The translations under genes were made by a program, and so were the position numbers. This document shows, in pieces, positions 1,000-1,407 of a stretch of 64,000 bases of DNA (within the stretch, counting starts at the first letter, position 1; each line of letters begins with the position of its first letter). The notes beneath the pieces were generated by a model. It had not been told where the DNA came from. It made no database searches and worked only from the letters and a program-made list of their open reading frames with translations. Source of the stretch: Dictyostelium discoideum. Lineage: Eukaryota. The DNA lies in contig CM000155.2 of assembly GCA_000004695.1 (NCBI GenBank), forward strand, positions 1,760,001-1,824,000, given 5' to 3'.

Positions 1000-1268
1000 T
1001 TTTTTTTTTTTTTAATATTGGATTAACAAGATTGATATATGTCCATCTGTGTTAATACGAGTTTTTATTTAATATTTATTTATAGGCTTATCATTTAAGC
1101 TGAAGGGTTATTTTAATCATATGAATTGATCAAAAGATATAATATTTGGGAGAGATGATTCTGGAATACAATAGTAATTAGCTGTTGTTTTTCTTAGCTT
1201 GATCGTTGAGGTGAGAAGGATCTTAGGATCTTTGAAATTATTATGGTCTTTTGCTGATAAGTTTTTCA
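1000..1268 (-). mobile_element. 5'-truncated 3' end (about 250 bp plus poly(A)) of a TRE3-type non-LTR retrotransposon
   Basis: 1021-1268 is the reverse complement of 17500-17762, the 3' UTR and ORF end of the element at 16290-17808; a T-run at 1000-1020 is the poly(A) tail on the minus strand; sits about 57 bp downstream of a same-orientation tRNA gene. Confidence 0.65.
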
Positions 1269-1286
1269 GATCCCTTTATAAAGTAA

Positions 1287-1296
1287 AGATTCGAAC
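1287..1296 (-). promoter_or_regulatory. Extragenic B-box (exB)-like motif downstream of tRNA-Ser
   Basis: Minus strand reads GGTTCGAATC, the Pol III B-box consensus, about 30 bp 3' of the tRNA; Dictyostelium tRNA genes are known to often carry an exB. Confidence 0.45.
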
Positions 1297-1325
1297 CATT
1301 GACTTATTTTAATTCCAAAAAATAT

Positions 1326-1407
1326 CGACATCGGCAGGGTTCGAACCTGCGCCTCCTAGGAGATTTGATTTCAAGTCAAACGCGTTAGACCACTTCGCTA
1401 CGATGTC
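1326..1407 (-). tRNA. tRNA-Ser (anticodon UGA)
   Basis: Hand-folded. 7-bp acceptor GACATCG/CGATGTC, D-arm GCG/CGC, anticodon stem TTTGA/TCAAA with loop CTTGAAA (anticodon TGA), long variable arm TCTCCTAGGAGGCG, T-arm GCAGG-TTCGAAC-CCTGC, discriminator G; 82 nt. Confidence 0.85.

Follow-up and report, generated by a model that had tools for sequence, protein, structure and literature searches.

The 64,000-nt stretch of Dictyostelium discoideum AX4 chromosome 6 analyzed here (the window) contains four tRNA genes, which were called with ARAGORN: tRNA-Ser(UGA) (positions 1326 to 1407, minus strand), tRNA-Leu(UAA) (16201 to 16283, plus strand), tRNA-Lys(UUU) (34633 to 34707, plus strand), and tRNA-Asn(GUU) (41505 to 41579, minus strand). 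Matches to the B-box pattern GTTCRANNCY number 14 in the window against 3.7 expected, a count reached in 0 of 100 shuffles, and all four genes are furnished with both an internal B box and an external one on the same strand, the latter situated 50 to 53 bp further downstream. At tRNA-Ser, the internal B box (1337 to 1346) is followed by a T6 run that constitutes the Pol III terminator (1322 to 1317, minus strand; 3 nt past the tRNA end) and by the external B box GGTTCGAATCT (1297 to 1287, minus strand; 50 bp downstream of the internal one), in agreement with an earlier reading of this DNA made from the letters alone (the sequence-only reading), which had assigned an external B box to this gene. 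The external B box of tRNA-Asn lies at 41464 to 41473. That of tRNA-Lys (34739 to 34748) lies 53 bp past the internal one, and this gene, which has no TRE fragment, is the sole unoccupied tRNA gene of the four. At tRNA-Leu, the external B box GGTTCGATTCT (17823 to 17833, plus strand) is found beyond a TRE3-A copy, by whose insertion it was displaced, such that the element sits between the internal and external B boxes; with the insert subtracted, the two boxes are separated by about 11 nt more than those of the other three tRNA genes.

Downstream of tRNA-Ser, and in its orientation, lies a short retroelement 3' end enclosed by a 10-bp target-site duplication, TTTATAAAGG. [quoted passage not shown] This piece comprises the last 51 codons of ORF2 with the stop codon (1272 to 1117) and the 3' untranslated region (UTR) (1116 to 1014); it is followed by an A25 tail (1013 to 989, minus strand) and by the right copy of TTTATAAAGG (988 to 979, minus strand), which forms the first part of a 168-bp stretch of flanking DNA (block X; 821 to 988, minus strand). 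The 259-bp piece is 98.5% identical to the end of the copy behind tRNA-Leu (17510 to 17767, there followed by A40) and likewise 98.5% identical to other copies. Thus, the fragment of about 250 bp that had been placed behind tRNA-Ser from the letters alone is present, as 259 bp plus A25. Also borne out is the wider observation that the same 3' end with poly(A) occurs three times, each time 3' of a tRNA gene and in the orientation of that gene, with the sequences at tRNA-Ser, tRNA-Leu, and tRNA-Asn matching one another.

The copy after tRNA-Leu (16311 to 17807, plus strand) begins 28 bp from the tRNA end, is 5' truncated at about element position 2779, and ends in A40 (17768 to 17807). Its extent in the reference is distorted by an N run (17291 to 17390), which in a second, gap-free assembly of a near-identical strain (GCA_054883475.1; 99.8 to 99.9% identical to the window) is replaced by 1,096 bp of the same element. 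The true length of this copy, as taken from the gap-free assembly, is about 2,454 bp plus A40, and its ORF2 remnant there runs uninterrupted through 785 codons. The reverse transcriptase ORF upstream of the gap (16368 to 17290) matches DDB_G0292060 of D. discoideum AX4 at 100% identity; an apparent ORF2 frameshift at about 17230 to 17245, just before this second gap of the window, does not recur in GCA_054883475.1 and may be a reference error. The junctions of this copy are less regular. No direct target-site duplication is recognizable there, and instead an inverted match of 10 to 11 nt is found, with TTTTTATAGAT (16287 to 16297) being the reverse complement of ATCTATAAAAA (17807 to 17817) on either side of the copy; the P value for a match of this length is about 0.002 with shuffles as the control and 0.013 with random AT-rich pairs. 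We also considered the 27 nt between tRNA-Leu and the element as an inverted piece of the element (twin priming) and found no match. Downstream of the external B box (17835 to 17980), 84 nt of unique sequence leads into an A62 run. The stretch may be plain genomic homopolymer or the tail of a further retroelement fragment, and a search for it as another retroelement 3' end gave no match in any locus compared.

The copy after tRNA-Asn (41418 to 41375, minus strand; 87 bp from the tRNA end) consists of the last 44 bp of the 259-bp 3' end, followed by A15 (41374 to 41360), and is flanked by the 10-bp target-site duplication GAAATCTGTA (41428 to 41419 and 41359 to 41350, minus strand). The Leu (2.45 kb) and Asn (44 bp) copies are ordinary, independent 5'-truncated insertions. 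The sizes given in the sequence-only reading therefore stand for the fragment at tRNA-Ser and need revision for the other two: about 38 bp at tRNA-Asn is 44 bp, and about 1.5 kb at tRNA-Leu is about 2,454 bp, of which the gap hides 1,096 bp. Of the target-site duplications that it proposed to look for, those at tRNA-Ser and tRNA-Asn were found, and none was found in direct orientation at tRNA-Leu.

To characterize the element as a whole, further copies were located via homologs of its ORF1 (loci L004, L005, L006, and L013). [quoted passage not shown] They encode an ORF1 of 417 aa and, in the -1 frame, an ORF2 of 1,234 aa, the two overlapping at TAATG. ORF2 shows a reverse transcriptase domain (Pfam RVT_1, residues 524 to 771; E = 1e-33), a probable endonuclease domain (Exo_endo_phos, residues 8 to 253; E = 0.0017 and 18.6 bits, which is under the 24.5-bit cutoff of Pfam), and a C-terminal CCHC-type zinc-finger motif (CPLC...H...C) that was read from the sequence. 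This is the architecture of a non-long-terminal-repeat (non-LTR) retrotransposon, with a poly(A) tail and two ORFs, of which the second unites endonuclease, reverse transcriptase, and zinc finger. Beyond the window, the distance from tRNA to element is 97 bp at tRNA-Ser(AGA) (L004), 85 bp at tRNA-Phe (L006), and 83 bp at tRNA-Asp (L013). Altogether, six of seven loci are associated with a tRNA gene, with the element 28 to 97 bp downstream and in the orientation of the tRNA in all six; at L005, no part of the locus examined gave an ARAGORN tRNA call. Target-site duplications of 10 to 11 bp are present at the Ser, Asn, L005, and L006 loci. Two of the additional loci also contain compound arrangements. 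L005 (2640 to 11925) bears two TRE3-A copies in tandem, 24 bp apart, one 5' truncated and one full length. At L004 (6780 to 6836), a piece of about 40 bp of TRE3-A 3' UTR with A12 lies directly upstream of the full-length copy behind tRNA-Ser(AGA); this piece ends 44 nt before the canonical 3' end and may represent an older insertion that was polyadenylated at an upstream site.

The resemblance of these features to what has been published on TRE3 is close. The consensus of Dd_TRE3-A is 5,229 bp, and 67 copies are reported, 14 to 228 bp 3' of tRNA genes (Spaller et al. [quoted passage not shown] TRE elements adjoin 61% of D. discoideum tRNA genes. The assignment to TRE3 that had been made from the letters is accordingly upheld by placement, orientation, and architecture, and we regard the element as very probably a member of the TRE3-A subfamily (formerly Tdd-3), a call made from length, ORF arrangement, and abundance rather than from alignment to a reference.

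The remainder of the Ser locus becomes apparent only when the reference is read alongside the gap-free assembly. Window positions 1 to 819 (minus strand) are the 5' part of a second, much longer TRE3-A copy of 4.93 kb, the rest and the 3' end of which lie outside the window. This copy begins at 819 with GACATCTCC and is without the first ~305 bp of the element; the start codon of the full-length ORF1 is thereby lost, and the first ATG left in the truncated ORF1 is at 786. The N run at 144 to 243 corresponds to 3,457 bp of the same element in the gap-free assembly, and positions 1 to 143 fall in the zinc-finger region of ORF2. The 4.93-kb copy is 99% identical to the Leu copy and has the orientation of tRNA-Ser. 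Hence, the GC-rich ORF at 244 to 786, which the sequence-only reading took for a possible further, nested element, is instead ORF1 of a same-family copy that stands in tandem with the fragment and in the same orientation. The two N gaps thus conceal TRE3-A stretches of 3.5 kb and 1.1 kb, and copy sizes taken from the reference mislead.

In the gap-free assembly, the order of elements at this locus is the first tRNA-Ser, the external B box, TTTATAAAGG, 259 bp of element 3' end with A25, and the 168-bp flank, followed by the 4.93-kb copy, which ends in the same 259 bp and A25 and is succeeded by the same 168-bp flank; about 105 bp past this second flank, and outside the window, comes a convergent tRNA-Ser(UGA). 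The 4.93-kb copy is thus bracketed by a direct repeat of 452 bp, made up of the 259-bp 3' end, the A25 tail, and the 168-bp flank, that is perfect at all 452 positions, including the A25 (locus L003, 9060 to 8609 versus 3960 to 3509; period, 5,100 bp). In the second repeat copy, the 259-bp 3' end spans L003 positions 3960 to 3702. Four variants are common to the two 3' ends of the tRNA-Ser locus and absent from the six others among the eight 3' ends compared, and both tails at this locus are A25, as opposed to tails of 17, 27, 32, 35, 40, and 41 A in other copies. The 168-bp flank was sought in other element copies and found in none of them; it therefore represents host flanking DNA and not element sequence. 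Two candidate explanations for its presence were discarded: it is not the 5' UTR of the element, as other copies begin with an unrelated 305-bp 5' region, and the repeat did not arise by 3' or 5' transduction, there being no poly(A) where the flank meets the 4.93-kb copy. The evidence for the second copy of the repeat and for the second tRNA-Ser comes from this one other assembly, of a near-identical strain. The second tRNA gene (L003, 3322 to 3403; about 1.1 kb beyond window position 1) is convergent with the first and has a paralogous 45-bp 3' flank and an external B box of its own; the two genes enclose the TRE3-A complex.

In interpreting this arrangement, we considered whether the element and the repeat are what they appear to be. 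One might argue for TRE3-B, -C, or -D, or for a family without tRNA targeting, given that the database names of the encoded proteins are just "hypothetical protein." The length of 5,230 bp, however, fits TRE3-A (5,229 bp) and neither TRE3-B (5,279 bp) nor TRE3-C (4,734 bp), with TRE3-D being partial (PMC5006619, Table 1), and the association of six of the seven loci with a tRNA gene, 28 to 97 bp away and in its orientation, differs from the upstream and opposite placement of TRE5 (PMC5911963); we therefore hold a different assignment to be quite improbable. Still less credible is the notion that the 452-bp repeat is an assembly artifact and that the real locus holds one truncated fragment or one 4.93-kb copy. 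A gap of the AX4 reference does lie inside the element, only one gap-free assembly was compared, and 5-kb repeats are classic trouble spots; against this, the junctions of the tRNA flank with the fragment and of the 168-bp flank with the 4.93-kb copy are both contiguous in the AX4 window (244 to 1407), and they recur, at 99.88% identity over 8.1 kb, in the second assembly, which also closes both gaps on a 2.2-Mb contig.

The more substantial competitor is a history of two independent insertions at tRNA-Ser, in which the 259-bp copy arrived first, with its 10-bp duplication, and the 4.93-kb copy later, primed at the existing poly(A) tract or beside it and with the second-strand nick 168 bp downstream, which would entail an unusually long target-site duplication of at least 168 bp. 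This scheme amounts to the sequence-only reading with a long duplication added. Such a history accommodates the clean TTTATAAAGG flanks that the 259-bp piece has of its own, has precedent in TRE-TRE tandems, which are common (PMC5391098; the L005 locus offers another), and places the left edge of the repeat at the truncation point automatically. It is nevertheless at odds with the four variants that unite the two 3' ends to the exclusion of six other copies, with the equality of the two A25 tails amid the diverse lengths elsewhere, and with the 10 to 11 bp of the other target-site duplications of the family. Two independent insertions would have to have acquired their shared variants and equal tails by coincidence or from a shared rare source, and we judge them unlikely to account for the locus. 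On the sequence evidence, the 259-bp piece is probably a duplicate that arose at the DNA level or in the same event as the 4.93-kb copy, and not an independent insertion. The steep three-step series of 5' truncations that had been proposed for the window is thereby left without support in its original form: the size of the Leu copy in that series is distorted by the gap, and the 259-bp piece is a 100% duplicate of the end of the adjacent copy together with its flank.

The account as a whole that we favor, and consider likely, is that the element is TRE3-A, that the compound at tRNA-Ser derives from one 4.93-kb insertion plus a 452-bp duplication, and that the Leu and Asn copies are independent of it. 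According to the literature, TRE3 uses target-primed reverse transcription to integrate close to tRNA genes occupied by Pol III, and it is thought to read Pol III factors bound at the internal or the external B box; these properties account for the poly(A) tails, for the 5' truncation of copies, and for target-site duplications of 10 to 11 bp. At tRNA-Ser, a single 4.93-kb insertion would have taken place at the TTTATAAAGG site, 44 to 53 bp past the tRNA gene, with duplication of TTTATAAAGG. A block of 452 bp, consisting of the 3' end, the tail, and the flank, would then have been copied to the 5' side of this insertion. One conceivable route lies in the resolution of the 5' junction: second-strand synthesis that started at the upstream end of the target would first have primed internally on the cDNA, at a point 259 nt from its tail end, where a 1-nt G microhomology exists, then read on through the tail into 168 nt of flank, dissociated, and resumed at the true end of the cDNA. 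A rearrangement at the DNA level at some later time would yield an identical product. We infer how and in what order these steps took place, and found no strain with the intermediate state. That the repeat goes back to one retrotransposition event, whether by such a second-strand template switch or by nicks staggered by an exceptional 168 to 452 bp, is a tentative proposal that we rate as less probable than its negation.

Comparison with related species bears on the age of the complex. At the orthologous locus, D. citrinum has a convergent tRNA-Ser(UGA) pair, 86 bp apart and without any element, and in D. firmibasis two tRNA-Ser genes are arranged in tandem, separated by unrelated DNA; the TRE3-A complex is accordingly restricted to the D. 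discoideum lineage. In both relatives, the spacer that separates the two genes is too diverged to align with the 168-bp flank, and these loci consequently attest to the element-free state and give no order of events. As a separate observation, the D. citrinum pair has one near-palindromic B-box-like sequence in common. Exact-protein lookups with three neighboring genes, made in search of presence/absence polymorphism, recovered one near-identical-strain assembly and short transcript contigs only.

The presence of TRE3 behind tRNA genes is already known biology in D. discoideum, in which such targeting has been described since the late 1990s, and set against it the 452-bp duplication is a minor curiosity, as is the odd Leu junction. 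The locus has little bearing on anything but annotation. There are nonetheless practical consequences, namely, that short 3' fragments adjoining longer copies are not automatically countable as independent insertions and that miscounting them affects the copy-number and truncation statistics of the family. Were the repeat indeed the product of a single retrotransposition event, TRE3-A integration intermediates would be able to copy flanking host DNA, and footprints of this kind collected genome-wide might inform how 5' junctions are resolved beside Pol III complexes.

With respect to known systems, the copies described here show no family-level difference from TRE3-A (Tdd-3). The same genome also houses the related L1-like non-LTR element TRE5-A (DRE), which likewise targets tRNA genes through Pol III factors; TRE5 elements, however, insert about 50 bp upstream of tRNA genes and point the opposite way (PMC5911963), whereas every copy here that adjoins a tRNA gene is downstream of it and shares its orientation. 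TRE5 is further distinguished by modular UTRs. TRE-TRE tandems as such are typical of the genome (PMC5391098), and what sets the Ser locus apart from known TRE3-A is the extra 452-bp duplicate 5' of the 4.93-kb copy, of which we found no description in the literature examined. Within this duplicate, host DNA and element sequence are repeated together. Atypical insertions of the mammalian L1 element display long target-site duplications and rearrangements of the 5' junction. These products are by-products of target-primed reverse transcription in which second-strand resolution has gone wrong, as may be the case at tRNA-Ser; classic twin priming of L1, however, leads to inversions, whereas the extra piece at tRNA-Ser is in direct orientation and includes flanking DNA.
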